Of a stretch of DNA of 64,000 bases, positions 1,714 to 54,137 are shown piece after piece; the first letter of the stretch is position 1, and each line of letters begins with the position of its first letter. The position numbers and the translations under genes are program-made. Origin of the DNA: Carcharhinus longimanus (lineage: Eukaryota); assembly GCA_030264375.1 (NCBI GenBank), contig JASCQW010000132.1:88253536-88317535 (forward strand). Reading direction: 5' to 3'. The notes below the pieces were generated by a model. The model was not told the origin of the DNA. It saw nothing but the letters and a program-made list of their open reading frames with translations, and made no database searches.

Positions 1714-3482
1714 ATGGAGACCGCACCACGATTCTCAGAGAGAGACATCACCAGGCTTCTCGATGGACTGGAGCAGAGGCCGGATGCACTCTACCCCACT
1801 CCAGGCAAAGACCTCCCACCAAAGTCATCACCCCAACTGGGATGTAGCGGCAGTCCTGGTGGGTGCAAGCTCACTGCAGGAGAGGACAGGGCAGTAATGC
1901 CGCAAGAAGATCAATGATCTTCTGCGCTCAGCCAGCGTAAGTGAGCCTCATGCAGTCTTTTCCTGGACCCCCTCACACATCCTTCCCACTTCCACCTTCA
2001 ACTCTCTCCTAGTCATTTTGATCTTTGCACCAGTAAGGAGGCCCTCCTCCTCACTCTCCTAGTTGCCATGTTTACCCCTACTCACTGCCATGCTCTTCAC
2101 ATTCCAACTCCCACTCAAGACCTATGCTTGTCACACCTCATCACCATCTTGTCAATGCTGCCACCTACACTCTCCCTTTCTTTATCATTGCAGGACGAAC
2201 CACAACAAGAGAAAGCAAGCAGCCAGAGTAATGCCAAAGCTCAGTACATTCACGCCATTTGAGGAGAGGGCCATTGAGCTGGCCAGGGAGGAGGAAGAAT
2301 GTGCCTGTGCTGATAATGAAGTGGAGGCAGCAGACAAACATGAGAATCTTCAAGACATGCTGTTATTCCTCAAGTCTCAAGTGGGTAATCAATGTGCCTC
2401 CCTTATTTCCTCTAATGCACCGTAAGCATTTCCCTTCTCTTGCACATAAAGCAACAAAGCAGACAGAAAGCAACTGAGCAGGCTGGATCATGTTCACACT
2501 CCCTGGATGCACAAGACTCAAGCAGCTCCGAGGGAGACTTCTCAGACCCCGCCATGGGATAGGCATCGCAGCTTTCACCCACATCTGGCAATAGCGCAGT
2601 TACTCAACCAGCAGTGGGATCACTAAATAGACAGGCTTCTGAGTCACTCATTGGTGAGCACCCCACAGCTGAAGAGCCGCAGCAGATGAAGGCAGGGATG
2701 TTCCAGGAACCTGCAGCCGGAGGGATGCTGGAGGCCAGGACTCTGCTGGACTCAGGCTCAATGATGTGCCGCCGGGCCCGGCGTCCCAGAACCGATGGAG
2801 TTGCAAAGGCAGGGTCACGAGTAACAGGAAGGGATGAGAGAATCCCTATTCAGAGAGCGAGGCTGATGGAGGAGCTCCATCGCCTTATGTCGGAGGAGAT
2901 GGTATTGTCACTGCAGCACACTGAGGCCAATATGTGAGGTTGACATCTGCAGTGGAGACCTTGGTGCAGGATATGCACCCCATGGCAAGGGGTGTCTGCA
3001 TCATAGCTCAGTGCACGAGCTCCATGTCTGAGGGTTTCAGCTGAACAGTACAGGGCCTTCAGCTGCATGGTGTGGGCAGTGGTGAGAATCCACAAGTGTC
3101 AGTGCCAGAGGATGGCTCGGCTTCTGGGCCTTACTCCAACTATTCTTCTATCTCATGGAAGACAATTGAGCCATCAGGTAACCAAAGGGATGAGGATTGT
3201 CTGGTGCATAATCCAGGGCCTTCCACCCAGAACATTCTGGGATCGTCCAGCTTATCTGAGCCCTTCTACCTGTGAATGACATGCCTCCAGTCCCACAGGC
3301 TGCACTGCAATACCTGCACTGCCTGAAAGCAGGTCAGGGCCCTCAAGATCCAGAGGGGACCATCACCAAGATAATCTCAGACAACAGGATGTGGAAGTCA
3401 GCAGGACATCTCGACCTCAGCTGTGGGTCTTGGGGAAGCATGTAGAAGTAGTGGGAGGGTGAGGAAAATCAAGTCGCGATAG
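1714..3482 (+). pseudogene. Harbinger Myb/SANT-like (MSANTD/trihelix-type) DNA-binding protein gene, spliced and frameshifted
   Basis: METAPRFSERDITRLLDGLEQRPDALYP...CRKKINDLLRSAS, then donor gtaagt at 1937; acceptor tttatcattgcag ending 2193; exon 2 HNKRK...TPFEERAIELA; AATAAA at 3540-3545. Confidence 0.8.
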
Positions 3483-3699: not shown

Positions 3700-4420
3700 C
3701 AGGAAACCCCCCAGTCCCCCCATTATATGGAGCCTTCACTGGTGTTTGTGGCCTCCATGCTGGTGTCATCAGTCACTTCCTAAAGGGCATCTCTTGTCCC
3801 TGAGGAGCCATCCTCCCAGTCACCACTCTCCCTCAAAGATAGCTGGCCCAAGATGTAACTGTCATGGGCGCTCCCCAGGAAATGGGCACATACATGCTTG
3901 AAGCATGTTGCGTAGACATAGACAAGTTGGACGTTGAGGGAGGGGAATCCCTTACGGTTCCTGAATAGCACCGCATGCCGCCATTGTGATTTAAGAGGCG
4001 CATGGGTACAGTCTATCAGACCTTGCATCTGGGGCATCCCTGCTAAGATGACCATGGTCCTGGCCTCATGGCTCACATAGTTTCGTTCAAAGTTGATAAG
4101 CATTTCAGCCCTAGCAAAAAGGCATCAGTCACCTCCCTGTGAGTGGCAGACTGGCAGATGCCTCAGATTTCCCCTGTGCTGCCTGGAATGAACTGCTAGC
4201 ATAAAAGTTCAAAGTGGGTAATAACTCTAAGGGCTACAGGCATTGGGAATCCTGCAGTTCCATGGGGTGCCATCTCATGCAGCATGTGGCAGAGGTGGTC
4301 CACTGTCCCTTGGGACGGATGCAGTATTCTCCGACACTGCAGCTTAGATAACCGAAGGTAGGAACATTGAGACGCTGGAAGACTCTTGGCCACACGGTCT
4401 CTGCCATTATTCCTCTGTGT
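3700..4420 (-). pseudogene. HARBI1-family DDE transposase, disrupted
   Basis: SYLRLSKLQCRRIL...TVDHLCHML...PMPVALRV; AGMPQMQGLIDCTH; FRNRKGFPSLNVQLV; FLGSAHDSYIL; GWLLRDKRCPL; LMTPAWRPQT..YN; several frameshifts and stops. Confidence 0.92.
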
Positions 4421-6437: not shown

Positions 6438-6760
6438 ATCATAGAATCTCTACAGTGCAGAAGGAGGCCATTCAGTCTATCGAGTCTGCACCAACCACAA
6501 TCCCACCCAGGCCCTATTCCCATAACCTCATGCATTTATCCTAGCTAATTCCCCTGACACTAAGGGGCAATTTAACATGGCCAATCCATCTAACGTGCAC
6601 ATCTTTGGCCTGTGGAAGAAAACCGGAGCACTTGGAGTAAACCCATGCAGACATGGGGAGAATGTGCAAACTCCACACAGACAGTGACCCAAACCAGGAA
6701 TCAAATCTGGGTCCCTGGGGCTGTGAGGCAGCTGTGCTAACCACTGTGCACCATGCCTCC
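6438..6760 (-). mobile_element. HE1 (V-SINE) with CR1/HER1-type tail
   Basis: tRNA-derived head (gtggttagcacagctgcctcacag on -), V-domain core gtggagtttgcacattctcccc, tail atcatagaatc. Confidence 0.9.
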
Positions 6761-8020: not shown

Positions 8021-8304
8021 AAAATCCACAAAATGTTCCATTTGGTCAGCATCTCAAATAGTCTCTCCTAATCAAATTTATGGGTTCACATGTCAGTCCT
8101 TGTTTAGAACTAGATGTGTGAAGGTGGATGTGATGCCTTTAAATCATGTAACTCTGGGTTGGTAGGGCTCATTAGCCTTGATTAGCAGAGTCACGAGTCA
8201 CTAATTTCAATGCACCAAGCTACAAATCATGTGCAATTACATAAACTGAACATGCAGGCTGTTCACCAAGTCCTTGACCAAAAATCAGTGATGTCAAAGG
8301 GAGA

Positions 8305-8648
8305 TCACAGAATCATAGAACCCTACAGTGCTGAAAGAGGCCTTTCGGCCCATTGAGTCTGCACCGACCACAATCCCACCCAGGCTCTACCCCCATATTC
8401 CTTTACATTTTACCTGCTAATCCCTCTAACCTAAGCATCCTAGTACACTAAGGGACAATTTTAGCATGGCCAATCAACCTAACCCACACATCTTTGGACT
8501 GTGGGATGAAACCGGAGCACTCAGAGGAACCCCATGCAGACACGAGGAGAATGTGCAAACTCCACACAGACAGTGACCCAACCCAGGAATCAAACCCAGG
8601 TCCTTGGAGCTGTGAAGCAGCAGTGCTAACCACTGTGCTACCATGCCG
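8305..8648 (-). mobile_element. HE1 SINE, full length
   Basis: Head, V-domain and tail all present. Confidence 0.9.
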
Positions 8649-9769: not shown

Positions 9770-10640
9770 GGCCGCGATTCTCCCATCCCGCTGCGCTAAT
9801 TTTTTAGCGCAGTGGGCCAAGAGAATCCCACGTTTGCTGATTCGTGGAGTTTGCGCATGCGTTTGCACCCCACTAGCGTCTTCCATCACCGGATTTCCAG
9901 CTGCATCTGCTCCGTGCTGGAAATCAGTGGGGAGATGCAGAAATGATTTAAATATCATTTCCATGTAACTGAAACGAGATTAGCGGGCTCAGGACTGAAA
10001 TCTCCAGGACTGAAATCTCCAGCCCACTAGCCTCTCCCACCCCACTAGAGTGTTTCACTCCAGTGGGGATTACATTAGCTCCCCACTTTCAGGGAACTAG
10101 TAGCCTGACCCTGCTGGGGTGAAGGGGAGGCAATCGGTGCCCTCCGAGAGGGTCAGGGATGTGTCCTGTGTTAGGACATCCTGGCAGTGTCAGCCTGTGC
10201 CCTTGGCACTGCCCAAGGGGATATGTACTAATGTCCAGGGGGCACCTTTGCACTGCCCATCAGTCATGGGTCATGGGACAGTGCCAAGGGCTGGAGCCTG
10301 TGGGGGCAAGGCCATGGCTGTGATCAGTGGGGGTCCCGCTGCCACTCTGCCTAGGGATAGGGATGGGTGGGAAATGTGGGAGGTCAGTGATTGGGGTAGA
10401 CAGGGGGGTAGAGTAAGCTATGGGGAGGGAGCAGCTTGCTGGGGGAGTTCGGTCCTGCGGTGGGGGCTAGAGATTGTGGCGGGCCGGGGACAGGCGGGTC
10501 GGGACTGGGCCTGGGAATGTTTGGGGGGCATCACCCAGCACATGCACAGTGTCCCCGCTCAGTCCATGCGCAGTGTCCCCGCTCAGCCCATGCGCAGTGT
10601 CCCCGCTCAGCCCATGCGCAGTGTCCCCGCTCAGCCCATG
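9770..10640. mobile_element. Non-autonomous Harbinger-type element (left part; right end lost in gap)
   Basis: Begins ggccgcgattctccc, the TIR type seen at 51445/52575; GC-rich ggcactgcc-type internal motifs shared with 51445-52575. Confidence 0.7.
10541..10640 (+). repeat. 24-bp minisatellite (catgcgcagtgtccccgctcagcc), at least 4 copies, running into an N gap
   Basis: Units read directly from the sequence. Confidence 0.95.
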
Positions 10641-11439
10641 NNNNNNNNNNNNNNNNNNNNNNNNNNNNNNNNNNNNNNNNNNNNNNNNNNNNNNNNNNNN
10701 NNNNNNNNNNNNNNNNNNNNNNNNNNNNNNNNNNNNNNNNNNNNNNNNNNNNNNNNNNNNNNNNNNNNNNNNNNNNNNNNNCCCACACCCCAAAGATGTG
10801 CTATTAGGCTGATTGGCAGTAATAAATTATCCCTAAATTAGTTTCCCTCAATGTGGATTGCCATAGTCATAGATAAGGGTCATGGGTGGAGGGGGGCTGG
10901 TGGTGTTAAAATGGCGGCGCGGGCTCTTTGGGTTGAAGGGCCTGTTTCCTGGGCTGTTTTTGTTCTTTGTTCTTTGAGCTGGTTTCCTGGAAATTCATTT
11001 TCAGTGTTCCAATTCCAAATAGATGAAAATTATTTGGAGTCATTGGTCCACCAAGTTAAATGTTTTATACATCCTGCAATCCTCTGATCCACCTTACCCC
11101 ACCAATGTCCTACTGCCCCACCTGATCTCTGACCTCCCTCTCCTTCACCCTCTGCCTGCACCACCCATTGCCCCACTCCCCTACTCATCACAACCCCCTG
11201 CTATATGGCACTTGCTCCCTGGCCTGTGGCTGTTTACAGACCTTCAATCATGCTGGCTGCCAGCCAAGAAACTTGCGGAAGAAGTTGAAAGGATATCCTC
11301 AGGTTAATATACACAGAGATCCAGGCTACTTCTAGGTTTCCTGTCAGGAAATCCTCCCTCCCCTCCACCACTCTCTACAAGCCCTGCCTAAATATCAGCT
11401 TTAAAATGTGGAGTTAGACTATGAAAGCTTTGACTAAAA

Positions 11440-11725
11440 CCATGGAATATAATCCCTACAGTGTAGAAAGAAGCCGTTTAACACACTGAGCCTGCACCAA
11501 CAACAATCCCACCCAGGCTCTATCCCCGTACTCCATGCTCGTCCCTCTGACATTAAGGGGCAATTTATCATGGGCAACCAACCTACACATCCTTGGACTG
11601 TGGGAGGAAACTCACACAGCGCAGGGAGAATGTACAAACTCCACACAGATAGTGACCCAAGGCTGGAATTGAACCAGGATCACAGGAGTTGTGAGGCAGC
11701 AGTGCTGACCACTGTGCCACTGTGC
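11440..11725 (-). mobile_element. HE1 SINE
   Basis: aaactccacacagatagtgacccaagg...tgtgaggcagcagtgctgaccactgtgccac. Confidence 0.85.
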
Positions 11726-12679
11726 CTTTTTAATCAAATTTAGGAAATTTGGATCCTAAATCCCGCTGGATGAAGCCTGTAAGCTCACACAGACACTAAG
11801 GGACCTAAAAAGAAGGCCCTGATCAGTTCGAATGTGCTTATTGGATGCTGGCTTTTCCCATGCTACCTGATTATGATGCTGCTTTATGTGCGGAAAATGG
11901 AGGCAGCAATATCTCCACAAAAACTCAGCAGATCTGGTAGCATCTGTAGAGAAAGATCAGATCGCCCTGCTTCTTTTCACTCAAACCGGAATGCAGCTTC
12001 AGGTCTAACCGTCTAACTCGGCCAAGTGAAGACTGCAGTGCAGCGGCTTCCTGAGGCCTACAGCTGAGTGCAGCAGAGTTGGGGGAAAGAGCATCAAGCC
12101 CTCTTTTTAAGACACTGGGTCCCGTAATGGAAGTAAGTTCAAGAGTCCCAGCCACTTTCAGAAGCCAGGGAGAAGGTAAGTGTGGAAGGGAAGTGGGTGA
12201 GATGGAGGTAAGGGTAGGGTGGATAGGGTGGGAGGATCAGATTGTCGATGGTGGAGGTGTTGTTAGGGCAGTCAGTTGTGAGACTAAGGTGGTCAACAGG
12301 GAGAGTCAGGTTATCAGTGGAGTGGGAGTTGGAAGGTTGATCGGGTGGTTGGAGAGGTAGTCAGGGGAGTTGGGCAGCTGGAGGGGTGGAGGGATAGTCA
12401 GAGGGTTGGGGGTAGTTAGGAGTATGGGGAGGGTTTGGGAGGGTCAGCTGAGGGTCCTTTAGTGCTTGTGGGGGTGGGGTTGGGGGCGGTGGCATTATCT
12501 GTTTTGTAGTTATCAAAAGATTGGTTTTCATTCTTTTAACATTTCTCAAATATCTAACAGTCCTGGAGTGGGGACATTCTGGGTGTGGGGGGAGCTCCCC
12601 AGTGTATCTCCTGGGTCACTCCCAGGTATAACCCTCTGAAGATCAGAGCTTATGGGCCCAATTTTTTTATCTTCACAAC

Positions 12680-12798
12680 AATGGTGGCAGAGTGGTTAGC
12701 ACTGCTGCCTCACAGCGCCAGGCACTGGGGTTTGATTCCCAGCTTGGGTCACTGTTTATGTAGAGTCTACAGATCCTCCCTGTGTCTGCTTCGGTTTC
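12680..12798 (+). mobile_element. HE1 SINE head, rest in gap
   Basis: gtggttagcactgctgcctcacagcgccagg...ttgattcccagcttgggtcactgt. Confidence 0.85.
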
Positions 12799-13569
12799 NN
12801 NNNNNNNNNNNNNNNNNNNNNNNNNNNNNNNNNNNNNNNNNNNNNNNNNNNNNNNNNNNNNNNNNNNNNNNNNNNNNNNNNNNNNNNNNNNNNNNNNNCC
12901 AGTTGACTTTCAGAGGTGCGTGGCCATTGGCAGCACCTTAGCACCACGCTCACTATAATCTCTGATCAGAACTTAGTAAACTATCAAAAATGTATAGCAT
13001 GGATATATGCTGCCTTTATCAATTAAGCAATTCTGAAGTACTAATATGCAAAATATATTTGAATATGAATGTTTATTTTGGGATGAACTTTGCGGAGAGA
13101 CTGCAGCCAATGTATATTGCTACTTGTGGAAGATTACATTCTCCAAATAATCTCACACAATATATACAGTAGCATACAGCGATGGGTTCAAATTTTATAT
13201 TGTACTTTTGGCTTTAGGCTTATGCTACAGAGGGTACTGTACCTGTGTCAAAATGCAGTGTACAAGTAGTACCAAATTAACCAAAATCTTTGTCCTGATA
13301 ATTTTATTGACCAGAAACCATGGTGACCTTTCTAAGCTTTTCTGCTTTATTATCACTTTATATTGTATGAAGTTTTACAAAGCCAGGAGCAGTTGTGGTA
13401 AAGGATGGTCAGGTTGCAAAAAATTGACAGCATATAGAATGGTGGCCAATATATTTTCTTCACTGTTTTGGATTCAGCCACATGATTACAATGTCCAGTC
13501 GCCATACACTTCCAAATTGTTGGGCCGGTCCAAAACCATTTTTGATCATCGTACATTACATTTCAAAAA

Positions 13570-13855
13570 GTGGTTAGCACTGTTGCCTCATAGTGCCAGG
13601 GACTCAGGTACAATTCCCAGCTTGGGTTACTGTCTATGTGGAGTTTGCACGTTCTCCCCGTATCGGTGTGGATTTCCTCCAGATGCTCTGGTTTCCCCCC
13701 CACAGTTGGAAGGGTGCTGGTTAGGTGCATTGGTCTTGCTTAAATTCTCCCTCAGTGTATCCGAACAGGTACCAGGGTGTGGTGACTAGTGGATTTTCAC
13801 TGTAGTGAAAATCACAGATTTTCATTGCTGTGTTACTGTGACTAATAAATAAATA
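13570..13855 (+). mobile_element. HE1-type V-SINE with alternative (non-HER1) tail
   Basis: Same head and core; tail ctcagtgtatccgaacagg...gtgtggtgactagtggattttcac...taataaataaa. Confidence 0.85.
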
Positions 13856-15169
13856 ATGTGCTGCATTAGCTGTAAAACACTTTGAGTTATCTGGCGGTCA
13901 TGAAAGAATGCTATGTAAATGCAAGTCTTCCTTTCTTCCTACATCTTGAAACAAGGGGATGGTATTAATGCACTTTATTTATTGCAAAAATTATTCAAAT
14001 TTTCACTGGACTGATTCACATTTCCTACTGAAACTGGATTGTTAGAGATACAGATCAATCTCATCAGGAGAGTCTTGGAGAGCAGGGTGACACTTTTGAA
14101 GCCCATGACATGCATTATTATCACCTACAAGTCAACATCACTCATCCAGTGTGTTAAAGCAACAGTAACTCGCATTTTCATAGTATCTTTGATGTAGTTG
14201 CTCACAAAAACGTAGGCAAACAAAGACAATTAGGGCCGAGTCAAAGGAGGGGACATTAAGACAGGAGGTGAAGCACAAGGTCGAAGAGCAAACTTTGAAG
14301 GAACCTCTCACAGCAAGGTAACCAGCTCTACCAGCAACACCATGCCTTTCAAATTCTAAAGCGGCTGCTAACTATAGCTATTTAAGTTATCAGGTGACAT
14401 GACGGATTGGCAAGAACCACCTTTAATATCAAAATGCATCAATTAGCAGTCTTCTGCTTTGATTCTGATAGTGACTTGTCTCATTAATGTACACTTGGAT
14501 CAGTTGCAGCAACTGGAATTAAAACAAACGTTACGCACCCTTGATGTCCTTAATGTCCTCAAGTTGCATGTTTGTGCACATCTGTGCAGCTTTGAGAGCT
14601 GGGACATTTATATTAACTTACAGATCATGTGTACAAGCCTCATCACCAATATTTTTTCTTTCATTTTCACTTAAGTTTTTTTCTTTATCCTCCGCAGGTA
14701 ATGATTCATGTTGAGGTTCAACTCCAAGGGAAACAGGAAGTGCCTATTCATTATGTAGAGCCAGCGAACAGGGGTAGCTGTTCAATTACAGGTTTAGTTT
14801 ATTATCACATTAGTCTTAGTGCATTGGTGTCATTATTGTAATGTCCTTACACTCTGTTTGAATTCATGACCTATTCAGTCGACATGGCCTATTAATAGTT
14901 CATCTAAATTAACAAGATCAAGTTATAGTTTCTACACTTTATCAACTAAATGGCTCAGTATAAATGAGATTCTAGGCTGCTGTGAGTACTTAGTGAGTTT
15001 TTGCATTAAACAGTTGAACGATACAAGCTGGGAGGATTTCAGATTCAATCTCTGGTTTGTACTGAGGTAACTACTCTCAGCTGGGATAAAGGAAAAGGTG
15101 CAAAATTTGACCTCAGTGCCTCTGGGCTAGGATTGACGGGTAACTCAGTCGGATTTCCTACCCATGTAA

Positions 15170-15345: not shown

Positions 15346-16075
15346 CTACTTCTTGTCACCATCCCTTTGACGTCAGTCGGATGTAACAGAACTGGGTCCT
15401 ATCGTACTGACTCTGATTGTTGCGACTCAAGCTTAAATGTTCATTCATTGTAGCAAAGGCAATTTGGAAGGGACTAGAGGATGATGACCTTTTGTGGAAT
15501 CTTACAGCAGCAAAGAGCCAATGTCTTCCGAAAAAAGGAGAACATTTGACAAGGAATAAAAATATGAACATGATACAAATAAATTTGCTTGTTTAAACAG
15601 CAAATCACAGCCTTTAATCCACAATGGTTTGAGTGATTCTCACATGCCTTTAGTTATTGGAAACAAGTTTAACATTGTAGAATTGCCTTAATCCCCTTTC
15701 CCACCCCTGCCATCTCCTTCCCAGCTGGGATCCTTACAAAGATCAGAGTATTTTATCGGTCATGATCAGATGTGTAATTAAGAAGATGAGGAATGTTTAA
15801 TTGTTATTTCCATTGTCTAGACACAGTTGGTTCTGAATTACAATGGAGGCGTGAGAAGGTTTGCAGCCTTTTTCTCTCCAGGTGCACCTTGCAAAATGTC
15901 ACCAGCACCCACCAAATAATTGATTCCAGTTTCAGCAGGATACAAATAAAGTTCATGATGCCCTAATTACCTTGTGTCAGACAGTGAGGGATGGTAGAAA
16001 GCAGCTTTCACTAATCCTGAACTTGCACCTTATTCTAGTTTCCCACTTATCTCCCCTCTGGGTTCTTCATGTTCA

Positions 16076-16861
16076 GTAAGAAGTCTCACAGCACCAGGTT
16101 AAAGTCCAACAGGTTTATTCAGTAGCAAATGCCACTAGCTTTCGGAGCACTNNNNNNNNNNNNNNNNNNNNNNNNNNNNNNNNNNNNNNNNNNNNNNNNN
16201 NNNNNNNNNNNNNNNNNNNNNNNNNNNNNNNNNNNNNNNNNNNNNNNNNNNNNNNNNNNNNNNNNNNNNNNNNNNNNNNNNNNNNNNNNNNNNNNNNNNN
16301 NNNNNNNNNNNNNNNNNNNNNNNNNNNNNNNNNNNNNNNNNNNNNNNNNNNNNNNNNNNNNNNNNNNNNNNNNNNNNNNNNNNNNNNNNNNNNNNNNNNN
16401 NNNNNNNNNNNNNNNNNNNNNNNNNNNNNNNNNNNNNNNNNNNNNNNNNNNNNNNNNNNNNNNNNNNNNNNNNNNNNNNNNNNNNNNNNNNNNNNNNNNN
16501 NNNNNNNNNNNNNNNNNNNNNNNNNNNNNNNNNNNNNNNNNNNNNNNNNNNNNNNNNNNNNNNNNNNNNNNNNNNNNNNNNNNNNNNNNNNNNNNNNNNN
16601 NNNNNNNNNNNNNNNNNNNNNNNNNNNNNNNNNNNNNNNNNNNNNNNNNNNNNNNNNNNNNNNNNNNNNNNNNNNNNNNNNNNNNNNNNNNNNNNNNNNN
16701 NNGGTGGATGGTGTTCTCATGTGAGATGATGGCATCTGTGTCAATGATCTGGCATGTCTTGCAGAGGTTGCTGTGGCAGAGTTGTGTGGTATCGTGGTCG
16801 CTGTTCTCCTGAAGGTTGGGTAGTTTGCTGCGGACAATGGTCTGTTTGAGGTTGTGCAGTT
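16076..16861 (-). mobile_element. Penelope-like retroelement, 5'-truncated, with 14-bp TSD (middle in N gap)
   Basis: Minus strand NLKQTIVRSKLPNLQENSDHDTTQLCHSNLCKTCQII, the Cys-containing linker preceding the GIY-YIG endonuclease; terminal repeat at 16076-16151; gttcttcatgttca at 16062-16075 and 16862-16875. Confidence 0.85.
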
Positions 16862-16994
16862 GTTCTTCATGTTCATCATGGCAGAGTTTCAATTTCATGC
16901 ACCCTTTTCCTTCCCCGCCCATGCAACCATGTCATCTGAGGGAGACTAAGAAAGATGCAACTTTTGGGAAAGAATCTAGAAAATTCCCCAAATA

Positions 16995-17175: not shown

Positions 17176-17182
17176 AGACTTT

Positions 17183-17672
17183 TTAATTTGATTTATTATT
17201 GTCACATATATTAGTATACAGTGAAAAGTATTGCTTCTTGCAGGCTATACAGACAAAGCATACGATTCATCGAAAAGGAAACAAGAGAGTGCAGAAAGTA
17301 ATGTTACAATCATAGCTAGGGTGTAGAGAAAGATCAACTTAATGCAAAGTAAGCCCACTCAAAAGTCTGATGGCAGCAGGGAAGAAACTGTTCTTGAGTC
17401 AGTTGGTATGTGACCTTAGAATTCTGCATCTTTTTCCCAACAGAAGAAGGTGGAAGAGAGAATGTCCGGGGTGCGTGGGGTCCTTAATTATGCTGCTGCT
17501 TTGCTGAGGCAACGGGAAGTGTAGACAGAGTCAATGGATGGGAGGCTGGTTTGCGTGATGGACTGGGCTACATTCAAAACTTCTTGTAGTTTCTTGCTAT
17601 CTTGGGCAGAACAGGAGACATACCAAGCTGTGTTACAACCAGAAAGAATGCTTTCTGTGGTGCATCTGCAAA
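17183..17672 (-). mobile_element. Rex1/Babar-type LINE 3' fragment
   Basis: CRCTTESILSGCNTAWYVSCSAQDSKKLQEVLNVAQSITQTSLPSIDSVYTSRCLSKAA followed by IKDPTHPGH; tail aataaatcaaa on -. Confidence 0.8.
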
Positions 17673-18074: not shown

Positions 18075-18405
18075 CATAGATCATCAAATCATACAGTGCA
18101 GAAGGAGGCCATCCGGCCCATCGAGTCTGCACTGACCACAATCCCACCCAGGCCCCACCCCCACAACTCTATGCATTCACCGTAGCCAGTTCCCCTGACA
18201 CCAAGGGGTAACTTAGCATGCCCAATCCACCTCACCCGCACATCTTTGGGCTGTGGAAGGAAACTGGAGCACTCAGAGAAAATCCATGCAGACACGGGGA
18301 GAACATGCATACTCCTCACAGACAGTGACCAAAGCTGGGAATCGAACCCGGGTCCCTGGCGCTCTGAGGCAGCAGTTCTGACTATTGTGCCACAATGCTA
18401 CCCAC
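18075..18405 (-). mobile_element. HE1 SINE
   Basis: Head with gggaatcgaacccggg B-box, core and HER1-type tail. Confidence 0.9.
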
Positions 18406-21400: not shown

Positions 21401-21650
21401 CTCCATAAGCATGTTCCACTCTGAGGCTCTTCAATATAATTTCAATATTGTTGATATTTACAGTATACATTCCCCTGTTAAGGGTTTTACACAGTTACTA
21501 GCCTCTCAGTGCACCATAGCTGAAATGCCTTAAACTGTGACCCTTCCCCATTGCACCTCTATGGATACTGTCCCAACCTTACGTACTGGAAACTGGCAGA
21601 AGCAGTGCTAGTGGGCAGGATAATTTTACATCACAGTTCAGACATAATAA

Positions 21651-21821
21651 CAGGTAAAAGTCCAATAGTTTTATTGGTAGCAAAAGCCACTAGTTTTCGG
21701 AACGTTGCCCCTGACAAAGGAACAACTTTACGTGACAAACGGGCAGTGCTCCAAAAGCTAGTGGCTTTTGCTACCAAATAAACCTGTTGGACTTTAACCT
21801 GGTGTTGTGAGACTTCTTACT
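21651..21821. mobile_element. Penelope palindromic terminal-repeat unit, degenerate
   Basis: ttggtagcaaaagccactag...ctagtggcttttgctaccaaataaacctgttggactttaacctggtgttgtgagacttcttac. Confidence 0.85.
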
Positions 21822-22084: not shown

Positions 22085-22390
22085 TAGGTTTATTTAGCAA
22101 TGTCACAAGTAGGCTCACATTAACACTGTAATGAAGTTACTGTGAAAATTCCCTGGTCGCCACACTCCGGAGCCTGTTCGGGTACACTGAGGGAGAATTT
22201 AGCATGACGAATCCACCTAACCAGCATGTCTTTTGAACTGTGGGAGGAGACTGGAATACCCCAGAGGAAACCCACGCAGACATGGGGAGAAAGTGCAGAT
22301 TCCGCACAGACAATGACCCAAGCTGGGAATCGAACCCGGGTCCTGGTGCTGTGAGGCAGCAGTGCTAAGCATTGTGCCAAAATGCCACCA
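22085..22390 (-). mobile_element. HE1-type V-SINE with alternative tail
   Basis: gtcacaagtaggctcacattaacactgtaatgaagttactgtgaaaattccctggtcgccacac plus the HE1 head. Confidence 0.9.
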
Positions 22391-26900: not shown

Positions 26901-28076
26901 CCTGTGAGCCACTGGTAATAGCGTAGACATGCACAGTACAAAGCAGATGCAAAGTGCAGAATATACACATGGTATATAAGACATGAAAGGGTGTAAGGGG
27001 TGGGTTTGCTGCACTCTTTACAGTGTCTTGTCCTGTATAGCTCCTCACGTTCACCTAGCTCTCACCTGCTCCTCGAAATAGTTGTTGGCAACCATATTCC
27101 TGGAAACTGCTTCGACAGGCCAGCCGAACCAAGTTAGAGCAGTCATTGGGAGCTGCTACCTTGGCAACTTAGGAATTAATCTTTCCTGGCCTACCTATGT
27201 GAAGGCTAATTCTGGCAGACTAGTAAATGAGACCAATCTGAGGCCCAATGGTTTTGGAGGCTGGTCAGCATTGTGTATGAACACCTAGAGTTCAACAAAA
27301 CACAAAAAATGTCCTGACCATCCACTGTATCCGAATCTATCTCCAGCTGTCTAAATTTGGCTTGCCACTGGACCAAGATAGGTCAGGACTGAGGGAGAGA
27401 GAGAGGCTGATGACATGCAATTCTCTCTCAACAAAACCCAATTCATGAGCAAATCATGATCACTATCTTTGATCTGTCACCCATCATTTAGCTGTTGTAA
27501 GTCCTGTGGTGATAGGTGACCAATGTTGCTGTAGGTATGGATTCACTGAGAGCTGTAGTTGTGAACATGCACGCAGCTGGTTCAAGCCCATTTTTTGCTG
27601 GAATGAAGTAGAAGTGGAACTCAACAACTCCCTGAGTGACTCAATTACTTGCTTTATTTCTTTCTAAAATAAACTTAAAGGGTTTAGCTATAACCAGAGA
27701 GTGCAAAGTTGTGATTTGCTCTTCTTGTTCCCTGTGGGAGGCTGGGCACATTTTCAGTGCCCCGGGCCAGCATGTGTTGCAACTCCTGGAAGCTCGATTT
27801 TCAGAGCTTGGAGAATCCGTAAATCTGAGAGCATTGTGGATAGCACATTTCAGAGGTGGCCACACCACAGCTAAAGGGACTTGAGGAAGGAAGGGAATGA
27901 GTGACCACCAGGCAGTCCAAGAGATGTAGGCAGGTGGTTCAAGAGTACCCTGGGGTCTCATTTGCAAATCAGTATTCAATTTTGGAGGCTGATGAAGGCG
28001 CTGGCTCCTCCAGGAAGTGCAGGCAGAGCCAAGCTTCTGGCACCACAAGCAGCCTGTCTGTACGAGGGGGAACACA

Positions 28077-28144
28077 GTAAAAAGTCTGACAACACCAGGT
28101 TTTAGTCCAACCTATTTATTTGATAATATACTCACTAGCTTTCG
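28077..28144 (-). mobile_element. Penelope terminal-repeat arm entering a gap
   Basis: gtaaaaagtctgacaacaccaggttttagtccaac...cactagctttcg. Confidence 0.75.
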
Positions 28145-28244
28145 NNNNNNNNNNNNNNNNNNNNNNNNNNNNNNNNNNNNNNNNNNNNNNNNNNNNNNNN
28201 NNNNNNNNNNNNNNNNNNNNNNNNNNNNNNNNNNNNNNNNNNNN

Positions 28245-30675: not shown

Positions 30676-30885
30676 TAGGTCAGATGAGTCCAAAGATGTG
30701 CAGGTTATGTTGATTGGTCATGCTAAGAAATTGCCTCTTAGTGTCCAGGGATGTGTAGGTAAGAGGGATTAGTGGGCATAATATATAGGGATATGGGGAG
30801 AGGGCTTGGGTGGGATTATGTTTGGTGCAGACTCGATGGGCCAAAGGGCCTCTTTCTGCACTGTAGGGTTCTATGGTTCTACGAT
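30676..30885 (+). mobile_element. HE1 SINE 3' half
   Basis: gtccaaagatgtgcaggtta...ctgtagggttctatggttcta. Confidence 0.85.
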
Positions 30886-30972
30886 ATTCTAGATCACAGT
30901 CAGAGCATTTACAAATTCTGCTTATCCAGTATTCATGTTTCATTACAGGCATAGCAATCATAGATTGCAATG

Positions 30973-31275
30973 AGCAGCACGGTGACACAGTGATAACACT
31001 GCTACCTCACAGTACCAGGGACCCGGGTTCAATTCCAGCCTCAGGGAACTGTCTGTGTGGAGTTTGCACATTCTCCCCATGTCTGCATGCGTTTTCTCCA
31101 GGGTATTCTGGTTTCCTCCCACAATCCAAAGTGCAGATTAGGTGGATTGGCCGTACTAAATTGATCTTAGTGTCTGGGGGATTTGCAGGTAAATATGTGG
31201 AGTTTGGGGAATAGGCCTGGGTGGGATTGTGGTCAGTGCAGACTTGATGGGCTGAACGGCCTCCTTTGGCCCTTA
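30973..31275 (+). mobile_element. HE1 SINE
   Basis: gcagcacggtgacacagtg...gacccgggttcaattcc...ggagtttgcacattctcccc. Confidence 0.9.
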
Positions 31276-31299
31276 GAGTCTGTACTGATTTCAATCTCA

Positions 31300-31542
31300 C
31301 CCGGGTCCTATTCCTACAATCCAACATATTTACCCTGCTAATCCTCTGACATTAGGGTCAATTTAACATGGCCAGTCAACCTAACCTGCACATTTTTGGA
31401 CCATTGGAGGAAACTAGAGCACCCAGAGGAAACACACGTAGATGTGGGAAGAATGTACAGACTCCATACAGTCATCTAAGGCTGGAATTGAACCCGGGTC
31501 CCTAGTATTGTGAGGCAGCAGTGCTAACCACTATGCCACCAT
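31300..31542 (-). mobile_element. HE1 SINE, inverted relative to 30973-31275
   Basis: ggaattgaacccgggtccc...tgtgaggcagcagtgctaaccactatgccacc. Confidence 0.85.
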
Positions 31543-31769
31543 GATAATATGACAGACAAGGCAGCAAGTAAAATAAGGATATGGAAGGAGGCAACGGGGG
31601 GGCGGAGGTGCGAGTATAGGTATTACATATTAACTGAATATAAAGGAGGCCTCTTTGACCTCTTTAACATTGGCAAGCTGAAAAAATGGGGTGGGAAGAA
31701 GAAGTTATAAATAAGCTAAACATTTATTTTGTCGATCATGGAAGTCCAAATGAGATTTTTTCAATCAAT

Positions 31770-33879: not shown

Positions 33880-35630
33880 ACTAAAGAGCACATTGATTTA
33901 GGTGTGGTGCAGGAAGGACAGTTTCAGATTCTGGGATCACTGGGACCATTTCTGGGTAAGGTGGGACATGTACAAGTGGGACAGTTTACATCTGAACCAG
34001 AAAGGGATGAACATCTTTGCTGGATGTTTTGCTGGTGCTGTTGGGAGGAGTTTGAACTAATTTGGCAGTGGGAGGGGATACAGACTGTTAGCAGAGAAAA
34101 GGGCCAGAATCAAATAGCAAAACAAATAAGTCAGAGGGAGTGCAGCTGTATAAGATTTCAAGGGAATAAAGCCAGGCTGGATGGCCTCTACTTTAAAACC
34201 AGGTAAAACACATGGGTTGAGGGCAGTGACTGACACGTGGAAATGTGATATAGTAGCCATCACAGAGACAGGGCAGGGAGGGGCAGGATTGGCAACTCAA
34301 CATTCTGGGATATAGAATCTTCAGGCGAGACAGGGGAGGACGTAAAAAAGGAGGAGGCATTGCATTATTAGTTAAGCAGTCAGTACTGCAGTGAGGAGAG
34401 ATGATGATATCTTGGAAGGAGCATCAAATGAAGCTTTGTGGGTAGAGCTTAGGTGTTAAAAAAGGTAGCCACATTGTTAGGTGTTTATAGATAGTCAGAG
34501 GGATATTGAGGAGCAGTTATGTGCTCAGTTTGTGGAGGTGCGTAATACCAATAATAATTGTTATTATATTAGGTGATTTCAACCTTCCCAACATTAGCTG
34601 GGATATACATAATGTTAAGGGCTTGGATGGAGTAGATGTCTTGAAATGCGTACAGGAGAACTTTTAAATCAATATGTGAAGGGTGCAACAAAGGAGGGAG
34701 CTGTGCTGGACTTGATTCTGGGGAATGAATCTGGACAGGTGGTTGAAGAGGTGGTGGGGGAGTATTTTAGTAATAGCAATCACAACATGGTACAAGTTAA
34801 GCTTGTATTGCACAAGGGAATAGATAAGCTGTTAAAAAAAGTCTTGGATTAGGAGAATTTTAGTAAAATAAGATAGGATCTGGCCAAGGTAGAGTGGAAG
34901 TAGCTTCTAATGGGAAAATTTATGTAAGAGCAGTGAGGGGCATTCAAAAAGGAAATGGAAAGGGTGCAATCCCAGCATGTTTGCTCTGAAGTGATAGGTA
35001 AGAATAACGAGCCCAGAGAACGATGGATGACCGGAGGTATTCAGGATACAATGAGAAGGAAAAGAAAGGCTTTTAAAAAGTACAAGGGGAGAAAATCAGT
35101 GGAGACATTAGTGAGGTATAGAAAGTGCAGGGTGGATCTTAAGAAGGCAATTAGGAATGCAAACAGAGGATATGAGGTAGCTCTGGTTGGTAAAAGTAGG
35201 GGAAATCCCAAGGTATTCCATAAGTATATCAATAGGAAAAGGATAACCAAGAAAAGAGTAGGGCCCATTAGGGATCAAGGGGGAAATCTGTGGGTGGAGC
35301 CAGAGGACATTGGTAGAGTGTTGAATGAATACTTCACATCCATCTTCACCCAAGAGAATGAGAGCAATGGTATGGAATTCAGGGAGAGAGATTGTGAGGT
35401 TCTTGAGCAAATTGACAGAGGGAAAGACAAAGTATTGGAAGTGCTGGCAGCCTTAAAAGTGGATAAATCTCCAAGTCCGAATGAATTATGCCTTAGGCCA
35501 CTGTGGGAGTCAAAGGAGGAGATTGCAGGGGTTCTGACCCAAATTTTCAATTCCTCTCTGGCCATGAGGAAGACAGCTGGAGGATATCTAATATTGTTCC
35601 ACTATTTAAGAAAGATTGTAGAGATAAGCC
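33880..35630 (+). mobile_element. CR1 LINE: end of ORF1, APE endonuclease and start of RT, disrupted
   Basis: DTWKCDIVAITET, LGDFNLPNI, ATKEGAVLDLILGNESGQV, GNPKVFHKYINRKR, LNEYFTSIFTQE, LKVDKSPSPNEL. Confidence 0.95.
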
Positions 35631-35975
35631 ATGGTTCTATGATTCTATGATTGAGAAGCCCTTTAAAGGACGACACTGCTCACCTCCCTACTATAGAAGA
35701 AGGAGCTAGAAAAAGTCCCTGAAATACTGTCTGCCTCACTTTCCTGGCCAACAGGCCACAGCTTGTAGGGGTCCCATCAATGTGATCATCAGTAGGTCTT
35801 GAATAAGAAGACAAAGATGAGACTGGTCACCATTAGAACACGTGCACTTGCCAAAACAAAAATGTTTGTCATTTGTAAGAGTTGGGTTTCTAGAGCTGAT
35901 TCCCCCATCTCTGTGTACCCGACCTGGAAGTGAAAATCTGGGCTGTTTGTACACTATCTTTCTATTGTACACTAT

Positions 35976-36314: not shown

Positions 36315-36565
36315 ATTATAGAATCATAGAACCTCTGCAGTCCTGAGTTGGCCCATCAAATTGGCACCAACTCTCATTTCCCCACTCATTTCCCCCCACA
36401 ACCCTGCTAATGTACACATCATGAGACATTAAGGAGCAATTTAGCATGACCAATCCTCCTAACCCATACATCTTTAGAAAGTGGGAAGAAACTGAAGCAG
36501 CCAGAGGAAACATCCACAGACGGGGGAGGGTGTGCAAACTCTACACAGTTACCCAAAGCTGTTCT
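36315..36565 (-). mobile_element. HE1 SINE, head-truncated
   Basis: atagaatcatagaacc tail; aatttagcatgaccaatcc; tgtgcaaactctacacag. Confidence 0.75.
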
Positions 36566-37126
36566 AACTTGTAAGGTGGGACATTCAGGGTCAGAGAGAG
36601 TAGGCTGTGAACCAGAAGTCAGTAATGTCACCCATTTTGAGGCACTCCTGGTACAGTTGCATCTGCACCAGAACTCATCATTTGGGGTCTGAAGCTTTTG
36701 CGGGGATGTTGGAATATCAATTTCTCCTGATAAGGTACAGTAGCTGAAGCCTGACATTCTCCAGCCACTCTACAGTTCAGGGGACATTCCACTGAAGCTG
36801 CAAAGGCTACATGTAAGGGAAGAGACAGTAATTCTTTCTGTTATCCAGAATCAGGAGTGCTCATTACTGAGCCACAGATCCTGCCCCAATTTGCAACTTA
36901 TTGAAGATCTGAACAATTAGAACAAACTGGATAAATTCAAGAAGTTATTTCACAGGCCTGGCGAAGTTCCAAACAGCTTAACAGGGTGGATTTTCTGGCT
37001 GAAAATTCACACCCGAGGTCAACGGAACTTTAAATAGTCCACCAAATTTCCTGTCCTGTCAGCACAGAGTCAGGGAGGAGTGTTCAACTGTGAAGTTACC
37101 CAGAAGTTAGATCTGATATTTTTCTG

Positions 37127-37321
37127 AAATCTCACAACACCAGGTTAAAGTACAACAGGTTGATTTGGAATCACGATCTTTTGGAATGCTGTTCTTCCTC
37201 ACCTGAGGAAGAAGCAGGGCTCCGAAAGATCGTGATTCCAAATCAACCTGTTGAACTCTAACCTGGTGTTGTGAGACTTCTTATGTGGCCGTACCAGTCC
37301 AAAGATGACATCTCCACATCG
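37127..37321. mobile_element. Penelope palindromic terminal-repeat unit with 13-bp TSD
   Basis: Inverted arms of about 70 bp plus tail ...catctccacatc; tgatatttttctg at 37114-37126 and 37322-37334. Confidence 0.9.
37199..37235 (+). ncRNA. Minimal type-I hammerhead ribozyme motif
   Basis: TCAC-CTGAGGA-A-GAAGC-AGG-GCTCC-GAAA-GA-TC-GTGA: stem I, CUGANGA box, stem II, GAAA box, loopless palindromic stem III, NUH site. Confidence 0.7.
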
Positions 37322-38236
37322 TGATATTTTTCTGCCTAACATTTCCTGGGTATCTATCCAGATAAGTGAATCGGAATCATGAGACTCTAATTCAAAGTTG
37401 GAGACTTTTCCCTTAGGTTCTGGATGCAGAGAAATTGCCAATCGGAGGTTGAATCTTTCCAGGTAATTCCCACCGAGTCCTTGTATGGGGACCTCTGAAA
37501 GCACACCCGCCCACCCTTTCCGCACCTCCAGTGCATCTTCTGACAATCCACAGGGGTAACAATCCAGAGACTAAAAGATCTCAACCATGGAGTTTGGATC
37601 TGCACACAGTGTAAGTTGGCTACAAGTGGCCAGGGATAATGTCCGCTCATTGAAGGATTAAGTTGCGGCTGGGTTCTGCTGCAAGGGACTCAGACGAGGA
37701 CCATGATTTTGATTTGATTTATTATTGTCACCAGCCTTACTATTCAGTGAAAAGTATTGTCCCTTGCATGCCATACAGTTGGTGGCATACAGAAGGAAGC
37801 TGACATGGAGACAGACTGAGATGCCAGTGCGTTAGCTGATCTGCCAGCCAGTCACTTGCCGTTGTCAAGGTGCATGGAGGAGTCCAGCCTCGACTTGGCA
37901 TTGCATAGAGTTTTCTCTAATATCTTCTCCATCTGCCTACTGTGTTGTAGATCTGTAGGTGTAACAGTTGCTGCTCCCGTCACTGTTACAGCCTTGTGTG
38001 GACAGACCATCAGAACCCCAACCCTCCGTGCATGAATGCAGCAACACATTCTGCCAAATCCAGTAACTCAATACAACATCTTGAAAACAGTCCAGAGTAA
38101 TTTCAGGCACTTTGCAACAAAATAAGTTATCCCTCATCACCTTACCAGCAAGGTGGATTTTTCTATGATGATATTATGGGATTCCTCCTGAGTCTGATCA
38201 CATGTTTTTTGGATAAGTGACCCATGAAGTGAAGGT

Positions 38237-38480
38237 TTGATTTGATTTATTTTGATTTATTATTGTCACATGTATTAACATACAGTGAAAAGTATTGTTT
38301 CTTGCATGCTATACAGACAAAGCATACCATTCATAGAGAAGGAATTGAGAGAGTGCAGAACGTAGTGTTACAGTCATAGCCAGGTTGTAGAGAAAGATCA
38401 GCTTAATACGAGGTAGAACCATTCAAAAGTCTGATGGCAGCACGGAAGAAACTGTTCTTGAATCAGTTGGTATGTATCCT
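38237..38480 (-). mobile_element. Rex1-type LINE 3' end (short piece also at 37705-37775)
   Basis: Near-identical to 17183-17420. Confidence 0.8.
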
Positions 38481-39399
38481 AAGAATCGCTAACTCTGTAA
38501 GAGATTGTAATAGTGCATTGCTAGAGAATTTAAAAGAATTAGAATAAAGTTTTAAAAGCATAGAGTGAGAGTAAAAGATAGAATTAGAGGGTATGCAAGA
38601 AGTCACCGCTCTCTGACGCCATCTTGGATTTTCATTTTACTGGCTGGTAATGGCAGATTCCCTCTTAGCAATTTGGATCATCCCAGGAGACTACCCTCAG
38701 TCACAAACAATTCCCAACCCAGCAAAATGGTGAGGTCTACCTGTATACTGCACAAGAAACAATACATTTCAGTGTATGTTCATACATGTGGCAATAATAA
38801 ATCAAATCAAAGATCAGGGGTATGAGTTTCACTCCAGCCATTATTCCAACAAGAAAGAAACTCAGCCCAAGTTCTCACCATAAATTCAACTTTGAACTTT
38901 ACCCCTTGGTAGGTCATTGGATAAATGTATTGCATTTGTGGGATATGGAGAATGTGTTCCATGTATCTGTGCTATTGGCTTATCTTATTAAACACTGCAG
39001 CGAAATATCATTTTTAGCTCAAAAATCCCTTGAGTGGGGAAGTTAGAAAAAATCAGCTAGAGTTTTTACTTAAAAGTTTTATTTAGTAAACATTTGACTT
39101 AAGTTGTCCAACAGACAAAGATTAAGGATATTGGTTTTGACTTTTATTTGCCTTAATGTTGAACAAAATAGTGTAGATTTATGTAGCAAGAGTGATCAAT
39201 TGAAGGAGGTATGTGTGTGCTGCTACTCTGCAACTTTGCCTGAGCAGCGGTCAGTAATGTTAGGGCAGTTCTGAAAAGAAGAGAACATTGAAAGATAAAT
39301 CTGAAAAGGGAAACAAATTGTGGTGGCCCAAAGTCGAGCTGTGATGTCCGGATGTAGTAACACGTTGTGTTGAGAATGTGGTTTCATGAGTTTTAAAAT

Positions 39400-40148: not shown

Positions 40149-40380
40149 GAGTAAGAAGTCTCACAACACCAGGTTAAAGTCCAACAAGTTTATTTGGTAG
40201 CACAAGCCACAAGCTTTTGGAGTGCTGCATTCCACTGTGAGTGGATGCACTCACTTGACGAAGGAGCAGTTCTCCGAAAGCTTGTGGCATGTGCTACCAA
40301 ATAAACCTGTTGGACTTTAACCTGGTGTTGTGAGACCTCTTACTGTTCTTACCCCAGTCCAACGCCAGCATCTCCACATC
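40149..40380. mobile_element. Penelope palindromic terminal-repeat unit with 10-bp TSD
   Basis: Inverted arms gtaagaagtctcacaacaccagg and cctggtgttgtgagacctcttac; flanks ttaagttgcc (40139-40148) and ttaaattgcc (40381-40390). Confidence 0.9.
40251..40287 (+). ncRNA. Hammerhead ribozyme motif with a C3-to-U core change (probably inactive)
   Basis: TCAC-TTGACGA-A-GGAG-CAGTT-CTCC-GAAA-GC-TT-GTGG. Confidence 0.55.
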
Positions 40381-50999: not shown

Positions 51000-51275
51000 T
51001 ATTTTTAAAGTTTATTTATTTATTAGTCACAAGTAAGGCTTACATTCACACTGCAATGAAAATTCTGTGAAATTCCCCGAGTCGCCACACTCCGGTGCCT
51101 GTTCAGGTCAATACACCGAACCAGCACATCTTTCAGACTGTGGGAGGAGACTGGAGCACCTGGACAAAATGCAGACATGGGGAGAACGTGCAAACTCCAC
51201 ACAGATAATGACTCAAGCCGGGACTTGAACCTGAGTCCCTGGCACTATGAACCAGCTGTGCTTAGCCATTGTGCA
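51000..51275 (-). mobile_element. HE1-type V-SINE with alternative tail, inserted in CR1
   Basis: tttatttattagtcacaagtaaggcttacatt...gtcgccacactccggtgcctgttc. Confidence 0.85.
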
Positions 51276-51444
51276 ATGGCAGAATGGTTTATAAGCTGAC
51301 TTCAAGATAGAAAACAAAGAGTGGAAGTAAGGGGTTATTCAGAGTGGCAGAAGATGGCAAAAGGTAATCTACAAGGACCAGTACTGGGGGCTACTGGTAC
51401 TTGTAATTTGCATTGAACATTTGGATGTCGGAATCAGAAGTACA

Positions 51445-53148: not shown

Positions 53149-54137
53149 TCTCGAGGTATTCAACAAAGGATTCCTGTTGTACCTCAAGGCTGGATTTCAC
53201 CAGCCATCTGAGGATTGGCTGAAAGACGGTGGGGTCTGGGAGAGGTGGCAAGGGACAACAGGACCTGGCATGCCAGTCATTTTGCTGTCACATGTGATCA
53301 TGCCACCAGTGGGATAAATAGCAGGCCTGAAGCCTAGATAAGCCATTTAAGCATTTCAACAGCAGCAGAAAGGGGCCTTGATGCTATTCATTAAGATCAT
53401 AAATGCATAGAATTACCTGCGATATATAGTACAAAACAGGCCATTCAGCCCATCCAGTCCATGCTCAATACAAGCCTCCTCCCATCTTCCTTCAGCTAAA
53501 TCTCTCATCATAACCATCTATTCCCTCCTTATTCATATAGTTGACTAATTTTCCCTTAAATGCTTTGTCACTCCCTGTGATAGTGCACTCTCAGTTCTCT
53601 TGGAGTAAAGAATTTTTGTCATTTCTTAGTGACTCTGTTGTTGCTTCTCGCTATGTTCTTCCCCACAAGAGGAAGCATTCTCTCTGTGGAAAATTAGACA
53701 ACTATATGAATAAGGAGGGAATAGATGGTTATGATGAGAGANNNNNNNNNNNNNNNNNNNNNNNNNNNNNNNNNNNNNNNNNNNNNNNNNNNNNNNNNNN
53801 NNNNNNNNNNNNNNNNNNNNNNNNNNNNNNNNNNNNNNNNNNNNNNNNNNNNNNNNNNNNNNNNNNNNNNNNNNNNNNNNNNNNNNNNNNNNNNNNNNNN
53901 NNNNNNNNNNNNNNNNNNNNNNNNNNNNNNNNNNNNNNNNNNNNNNNNNNNNNNNNNNNNNNNNNNNNNNNNNNNNNNNNNNNNNNNNNNNNNNNNNNNN
54001 NNNNNNNNNNNNNNNNNNNNNNNNNNNNNNNNNNNNNNNNNNTCTCCCAGACCCCACCGTCTTTCAGCCAATCCTCAGATGGCTGGTGAAATCCAGCCTT
54101 GAGGTACAACAGGAATCCTATGTTGAATACCTCGAGA
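53149..54137. repeat. 95-bp inverted repeat (53149-53243 and 54043-54137), 1 mismatch
   Basis: Manual reverse-complement alignment; the second arm abuts an N gap. Confidence 0.9.
53400..53700 (-). mobile_element. CR1 LINE 3' end, decayed
   Basis: catagaa...caggccattcagcccatccagtccatgct...ttcccttaaatgc. Confidence 0.6.

Follow-up and report, generated by a model that had tools for sequence, protein, structure and literature searches.

A probable Penelope-like hammerhead, mutated and predicted to be buried, in a 195-bp fold-back insertion of shark DNA

In a 64,000-nt stretch of shark DNA (the window), the hammerhead motif found at 37.2 kb is very probably a mutated minimal hammerhead of a Penelope-like element (PLE) that was left in a 195-bp fold-back insertion, where the ribozyme, predicted to be buried, probably does not cut. 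On its own this copy matters little, as it is one decayed example of a published association in a published insertion form. It does carry a warning for motif counts, since descriptor matches in such genomes will often be damaged motifs locked in hairpins and counts based on them thus overstate the number of active ribozymes.

A minimal hammerhead motif with both catalytic boxes

The minimal type-I hammerhead motif occupies 37199–37235 on the + strand. An initial annotation, made from the letters alone, had placed the motif here with its stem I, both boxes, one stem II mismatch and a cut after 37231, and all of these are confirmed in the sequence. In hammerhead numbering the upstream half has C3 at 37203, N7 at G37207, A9 at 37209, an extra A at 37210 and G10.1 at 37211, and the downstream half has C11.1 at 37223, G12 at 37224, A15.1 at 37227, U16.1 at 37230 and C17 at 37231. 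The core boxes CUGANGA (37203–37209) and GAAA (37224–37227) are present together with U16.1/H17 (37230–37231), and the cut is predicted after 37231, at a UC cleavage site. Stem I is 4 bp long (37199–37202 with 37232–37235). Stem II has four pairs, a 3-nt loop and a mismatch at its second position (A37212 versus C37222). With the core boxes and helix I in place, with an extra nucleotide (A37210) between positions 9 and 10.1, and with G37211–C37223 forming the G10.1–C11.1 pair, the assignment to the minimal type-I class holds. An extra nucleotide after A9 is tolerated in viroid and PLE hammerheads, as the initial annotation had stated for a viroid (PMC3705267; PMC4209133), and in the viroid hammerhead an extra A at this point causes a moderate slowing (PMC3705267).

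Stem III requires a correction. It had been described as a GAUC palindrome, which takes in the cleavage nucleotide and omits A15.1; the true stem from A15.1 to U16.1 (37227–37230) is AGAU, which is not palindromic. In a homodimer AGAU would pair as A-U, G.A, A.G and U-A, leaving two pairs that flank a tandem G.A mismatch; scored with one shared clamp, this stem reaches −6.7 kcal/mol versus −14.6 kcal/mol for AGCU.

The motif is real and not a product of chance. A chance match might be argued from the isolated 37-mer, which folds no better than shuffled letters (176 of 200 shuffles fold as well), and from an Rfam search that returned 6 matches at E up to 5 with no hammerhead model among them. 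We give this explanation a negligible probability. A minimal-hammerhead descriptor run over both strands of the window gave a single match, this one, and gave 0 matches in 100 windows simulated with an order-2 Markov model. The family-majority letters described below improve both stems, and position 17, where C, U and A all occur, is never G in the 8 arms of the repeat present in the window.

The motif lies in a fold-back insertion

The insertion (37127–37321) measures 195 bp, is without an ORF, and consists of an inverted arm, a direct arm and a one-sided tail. It is flanked by a 13-bp target-site duplication whose left (37114–37126) and right (37322–37334) copies, given on the + strand, match at 13 of 13 positions. 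The inverted arm (37127–37201, − strand), recognized from its alignment to the direct arm and from the fold, is the reverse complement of the element's 3' end. The direct arm (37202–37285, + strand) reads as a 5'-truncated 3' end (pseudo-LTR) of a PLE, and the tail of about 36 nt (37286–37321, + strand, start approximate) is missing from the inverted arm and common to the 40-kb unit described below. The arms are identical in 68 of 76 aligned columns and differ in 8, and in the inverted arm the hammerhead copy is broken, position 3 being G and position 12 being A. Together the arms are predicted to form a near-perfect hairpin of ~80 bp (−114.5 kcal/mol, z −19.3, with none of 200 shuffles as good).

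Two letters that are rare in the family are common to both arms, at the pairs 37229/37177 and 37244/37162. The second of these is C at 37244 in the direct arm, where the family has A within an AATAAA hexamer. Under independent mutation of the arms, sharing two rare letters would have a chance of ~0.001–0.025 under most settings and 0.11 under the laxest. The shared letters point to a single molecule, already carrying them, as the likely source of both arms, or else to later homogenisation of the arms. Should the source molecule already have had these letters, an element with a non-palindromic stem III would still have been mobile. We also considered stem I as a junction artefact, which is ruled out by family contigs that align from 37198 and by the 40-kb sibling, which has the same upstream letters.

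Sibling loci in the window

Five copies of the repeat had been claimed for the window. Five repeat loci do exist, but both boxes are visibly intact at only one of them, the 37.2-kb copy. The nearest copy on the same strand, 3.05 kb away, is a fold-back unit with a tail (40149–40379, + strand) that has an 11-bp target duplication matching at 10 of 11 positions. Its hammerhead at 40.25 kb has an AGCU stem III but a U at position 3, and itself lies inside a hairpin. At the turn of this unit a 7-bp mini-hairpin (40237–40254) takes the 5' strand of the hammerhead stem I; the mini-hairpin may be either upstream sequence that is native or a product of the junction. An older fold-back unit (21643–21821, + strand) has both boxes broken in its direct arm and shows no convincing target duplication, the best being 9 of 11. 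Two further loci are 3' ends on the − strand: one at 16075–16151, with the second box and an AGCU stem III visible and with box 1 in a 551-N gap, and a diverged one at 28073–28144, interrupted by a 100-N gap that lies immediately 5' of its second box.

Of the 6 window arms that no gap interrupts, 1 keeps box 1 intact. At position 12, 3 of the 8 arms carry A in place of G, a change that CpG decay would produce. In all three complete units the predicted turn lies 5' of core position 3 by no more than about 12 nt. All arms traverse the predicted cut site, which suggests that the template was uncleaved. The window has no direct (head-to-tail) tandem of the repeat. We also considered the 37.2-kb and 40.25-kb copies as the two ends of one element, which is ruled out by a tblastn search that found no PLE ORF between them.

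The window includes 14 N runs (3,432 bases), among them 16152–16702 and 28145–28244. Two of the runs begin inside the repeat family, as expected if palindromes break short-read assembly. A 24-nt tandem repeat at 10536–10640, with at least 4 copies, runs into a gap. A 95-nt inverted repeat (53149–53243 / 54043–54137), its arms 99% complementary and one of them adjoining a 301-N gap, is either a fold-back of recent origin or an artefact of the assembly. A SINE-like family of ~300 nt is abundant in both orientations, with several copies arranged as short inverted pairs; copies lie at 6441–6756, 8304–8647, 11447–11726, 18082–18399, 22111–22384, 30728–31545, 36408–36527 and 51036–51282, and we take the family to resemble shark HE1-type SINEs. 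A fragment of a DDE_Tnp_4 transposase at 3783–4124 (− strand) scores above the Pfam cut-off. Frames at 2063–2937 (+ strand), which have no Pfam match, presumably resemble the partner gene of Harbinger-type transposons, and an open frame of 237 aa at 34937–35650 (+ strand), likewise with no Pfam match, reads in our estimation like a fragment of LINE ORF2.

Family letters and abundance in sequencing contigs

We aligned contigs from 4 of 22 listed sequencing runs on 36650–37750 at 80% likeness, with 9,831–14,491 contigs per run. At 37229, C accounts for 93–98% of family depth (97.5, 97.5, 97.4 and 93.3% in the four runs), which restores AGCU, and at 37212, G accounts for 94.6, 91.3, 95.2 and 91.7%, which restores the stem II pair; at 37244, A accounts for 97–98%. 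The AGCU stem III that the initial annotation had seen in sibling copies is thus the prevailing form, and it is present in 5 of the 8 window arms. The defects in stems II and III are peculiar to the 37.2-kb copy relative to the family majority. Read at stems II and III, the family-majority motif looks like a well-formed minimal hammerhead that would be dimer-competent; among the 40 family variant rows listed, none falls on a box 1 position. A second subfamily, found in loose-end consensus rows and in window siblings, is 7 nt longer after stem I and has the second box, AGCU and A17.

Depth over the bin containing the motif is ~3,800–22,800 times that of the unique flank bin in the four runs, a ratio that is not a copy number. 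The repeat family is very abundant, as had been anticipated from the window alone. A 28-nt family pattern gave 0 loci in collections of metagenomes, viral genomes and prokaryote genomes. Many contigs of other loci join 37283 to 37704–37711, which is the top joint with 23–56 contigs per run. The partner of this joint is the AT-rich start of repeat family D12/D8 (17181–17422, 37707–37778, 38245–38486), which weakly hints that the element inserted repeatedly into the AT-rich end of D12/D8, the sides of the joint being shorter than 30 letters.

In each of the 4 runs, contigs bridge the right junction of the 37.2-kb insertion to its unique flank; three of the runs are labelled as different organisms, and the bridging flanks differ at 0/472, 3/225, 12/461 and 15/392 letters (0–3.8%). 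A junction common to several organisms indicates that the insertion is older than their split; no empty-site joint was among the joints listed from the 4 runs. Persistence of this kind, along with the very stable fold, the two rare letters common to both arms and shape-level Rfam matches to miRNA models, could mean that the insertion was kept as a functional dsRNA hairpin, serving as an ADAR or Dicer substrate or as a miRNA-like precursor, with the ribozyme incidental. We regard this as distinctly improbable. The Rfam scores for MIR6425 and mir-3851 are 44.6 versus 142 and 31.8 versus 106 bits, far under gathering, and hairpins are a routine product of this repeat family, being formed by 3 of 3 complete units in the window. 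Presence in relatives this close is also expected of a neutral insertion.

Link to a Penelope-like element ORF

The initial annotation had named the repeat a Penelope terminal repeat in a shark. We located an ORF fragment at 16704–16865 (− strand) that, judged by homologue matches and a domain scan, corresponds to the linker between reverse transcriptase (RT) and endonuclease and contains C-x4-C-x2-C. The fragment lies on the 5' side of the 16.1-kb repeat in the same orientation, which agrees with that name, and the link between the two spans the 551-N gap. Its 51-aa frame (P0001) matches 24 of 28 candidate proteins at 67–93% identity, and all the named ones are shark proteins, as fits the proposed host; its identity to shark RT/GIY-YIG proteins reaches 92%. 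P0001 itself has no Pfam match. A domain scan of 9 of its homologues found RVT_1 in 3 and GIY-YIG in 3, with both in P0002, the GIY-YIG matches and the RVT_1 match of P0002 all being below the Pfam cut-off. A tblastn search of the window gave no further piece of a PLE ORF. Taken together, the order and sense of these pieces support the 37.2-kb repeat as the 3' end of an endonuclease-bearing PLE, with the RT-endonuclease fragment linked across the gap.

Endonuclease-bearing PLEs of the Neptune type have a CX2-5CxxC linker motif between RT and endonuclease (PMC8557442), and C-x4-C-x2-C in P0001 fits this definition. Because Nematis elements also have the linker motif, we treat the Neptune clade as a lead for the shark element and not as a result.

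A unit that is short, non-coding, palindromic and high-copy and has a target duplication might also be a MITE whose termini resemble a hammerhead by accident. This is extremely unlikely in our view, given that the tail is asymmetric, that the duplications measure 13 and 11 bp and so have no one fixed length, that the junction sequence is variable, and that an RT-endonuclease ORF fragment stands upstream of the repeat in the same sense.

Folding and predicted activity

In its context, hammerhead-compatible pairing of the 37.2-kb motif lies 43.2 kcal/mol above the ensemble, and in the isolated 37-mer it lies 2.8 kcal/mol above. For the 40-kb sibling the hammerhead fold is predicted 32.0 kcal/mol above the ensemble. 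All of these values come from nearest-neighbour models, which leave out tertiary contacts, proteins and helicases. In + strand prefixes ending at 37225–37245 the core is predicted to be already paired with the upstream arm. The − strand transcript folds at −122.5 kcal/mol, with G3 and A12 in its hammerhead copy. When two 37.2-kb copies were co-folded, the lowest-energy state was not the dimer hammerhead, and the same held for the AGCU sibling. The 37.2-kb copy is without a second intact motif in tandem with which to form a dimer. We conclude that this copy is probably inactive, being buried in predicted dsRNA, privately damaged in its stems and lacking a tandem partner. One finding runs counter to inactivity: both of its catalytic boxes are intact despite the 8 differences in 76 arm columns. 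A transcript begun inside the loop region would, moreover, escape the antisense arm.

The initial annotation had supposed that such motifs are able to cleave pre-mRNA of the host or generate small or circular RNAs. Private damage, the missing tandem partner and predicted sequestration by the antisense arm all speak against this for the 37.2-kb copy. That it nonetheless works as a ribozyme on host read-through RNA, cutting it either alone with a protein or as a heterodimer with the copy 3 kb downstream, is very unlikely. Both boxes and the UC cleavage site are in its favor, an AUC triplet supports good catalysis in a viroid hammerhead (PMC1636495), the hammerhead of the lizard Anolis Poseidon element (PAc) cleaves with, and only with, the element's protein (PMC11167929), and the 40.25-kb copy shares its strand. 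These points are outweighed by the predicted burial of both copies, by 43 kcal/mol at 37.2 kb and 32 kcal/mol at 40.25 kb, and by a stem III that in comparison with AGCU is 7.9 kcal/mol weaker in the AGAU homodimer and 6.7 kcal/mol weaker in the heterodimer, whose 40.25-kb partner also has U3. In published assays a schistosome hammerhead did not cleave as a monomer and cleaved weakly as dimers (PMC4209133), and 1 of 9 Xenopus retrozyme dimers cleaved (bioRxiv 10.64898/2026.07.22.740005). Nor was a host exon detected: the search gave a single Pfam match, a transposase, in the 194 of 216 gap-free ORFs of at least 68 aa that were scanned, the other 22 being mostly in SINE-like repeats and short exons being of a size that would escape. 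An inactive, decayed hammerhead within a PLE fold-back accordingly remains our preferred description of the 37.2-kb copy.

Proposed origin of the insertion

Such an insertion could have arisen as follows. The endonuclease of the element would nick AT-rich DNA, and reverse transcription would start at the tail, cross the uncleaved hammerhead and stop at its 5' edge. The inverted arm would then be made from the same molecule, either by self-priming or by a template switch. A + strand transcript of the finished insertion would make the antisense arm first, and the hammerhead letters would pair while emerging, giving dsRNA that is not cut. Judging from the literature, the family-majority motif would be active only where full-length elements stand in tandem, either by dimerizing or with help from the element's protein.

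A broader reading, which we put forward as speculative and on balance unlikely, is that many thousands of shark Penelope stubs turn back at the 5' edge of the hammerhead, that their antisense arm cages the ribozyme and that they are tolerated in transcribed DNA, the 37.2-kb stub having come from a source with a non-palindromic stem III. If this is true, the pre-existing non-palindromic source would count as in vivo evidence that Penelope elements can jump without ribozyme cleavage. The abundance of the family would permit two genome-wide tests, one asking if the point of fold-back is linked to the ribozyme and the other if copies with a dead ribozyme still serve as sources.

Comparison with known systems

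Earlier work has already described the class, its extra nucleotide, the dimer model and how abundant the motifs are across the genomes of fish, coelacanth and frog (PMC4209133). The minimal hammerheads (min-HHR) described there for metazoan PLEs have a type-I topology with no stem III loop, a helix I of 4–5 bp, an extra nucleotide between 9 and 10.1, a G10.1–C11.1 pair and palindromic 15.2–16.2 positions. They occur as thousands of mostly single truncated copies and as nearby opposite-strand pairs, and are known from fish Xena, Poseidon and Neptune elements, from coelacanth and from Xenopus (PMC4209133). The shark motif has the same topology, extra nucleotide and helix I, and 15.2–16.2 is palindromic in the family majority, whereas in the 37.2-kb copy stem III is no longer palindromic and stem II is short of one pair. 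The word "shark" has 0 occurrences in the main text and one supplementary file of that paper, a literature search for "hammerhead ribozyme" with "elasmobranch" gave 0 matches, and our search of the literature found no paper on a shark PLE hammerhead family, although the repeat databases Repbase and Dfam may cover sharks.

The PAc hammerhead is dispensable for insertion in vitro, and no RNA-seq ends are reported at its site (PMC11167929). The shark arrangement is like that of PAc in that the hammerhead lies just 5' of the tail where reverse transcription starts and the target is AT-rich; the shark arms that cross the predicted cut site likewise recall the uncleaved RNA that serves as template in PAc (PMC11167929). 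The two differ in that the shark element belongs, as far as its linker motif indicates, to another PLE clade, and in that PAc was tested intact whereas the shark copy is a decayed stub.

Typical insertions of endonuclease-bearing PLEs combine 5' truncation, an adjacent inverted copy and a palindrome at the junction with a one-sided tail of 30–40 bp, and in rotifer examples the target-site duplications are 8–10 bp (PMC3846280; PMC8557442). The junction palindromes have been interpreted as self-priming (PMC3846280). The 37.2-kb unit matches this form in its 5' truncation, inverted copy, junction palindrome, one-sided tail and target duplication, and departs from it in having ~85 bp per arm, no ORF and a 13-bp duplication and in turning at the 5' edge of the hammerhead. 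Animal non-LTR retrozymes, which are PLE-derived and non-coding and carry a type-I hammerhead, are present in the one chondrichthyan genome sampled (bioRxiv 10.64898/2026.07.22.740005). In contrast to these head-to-tail arrays with at least 2 complete motifs, the 37.2-kb unit is head-to-head and has one intact core.
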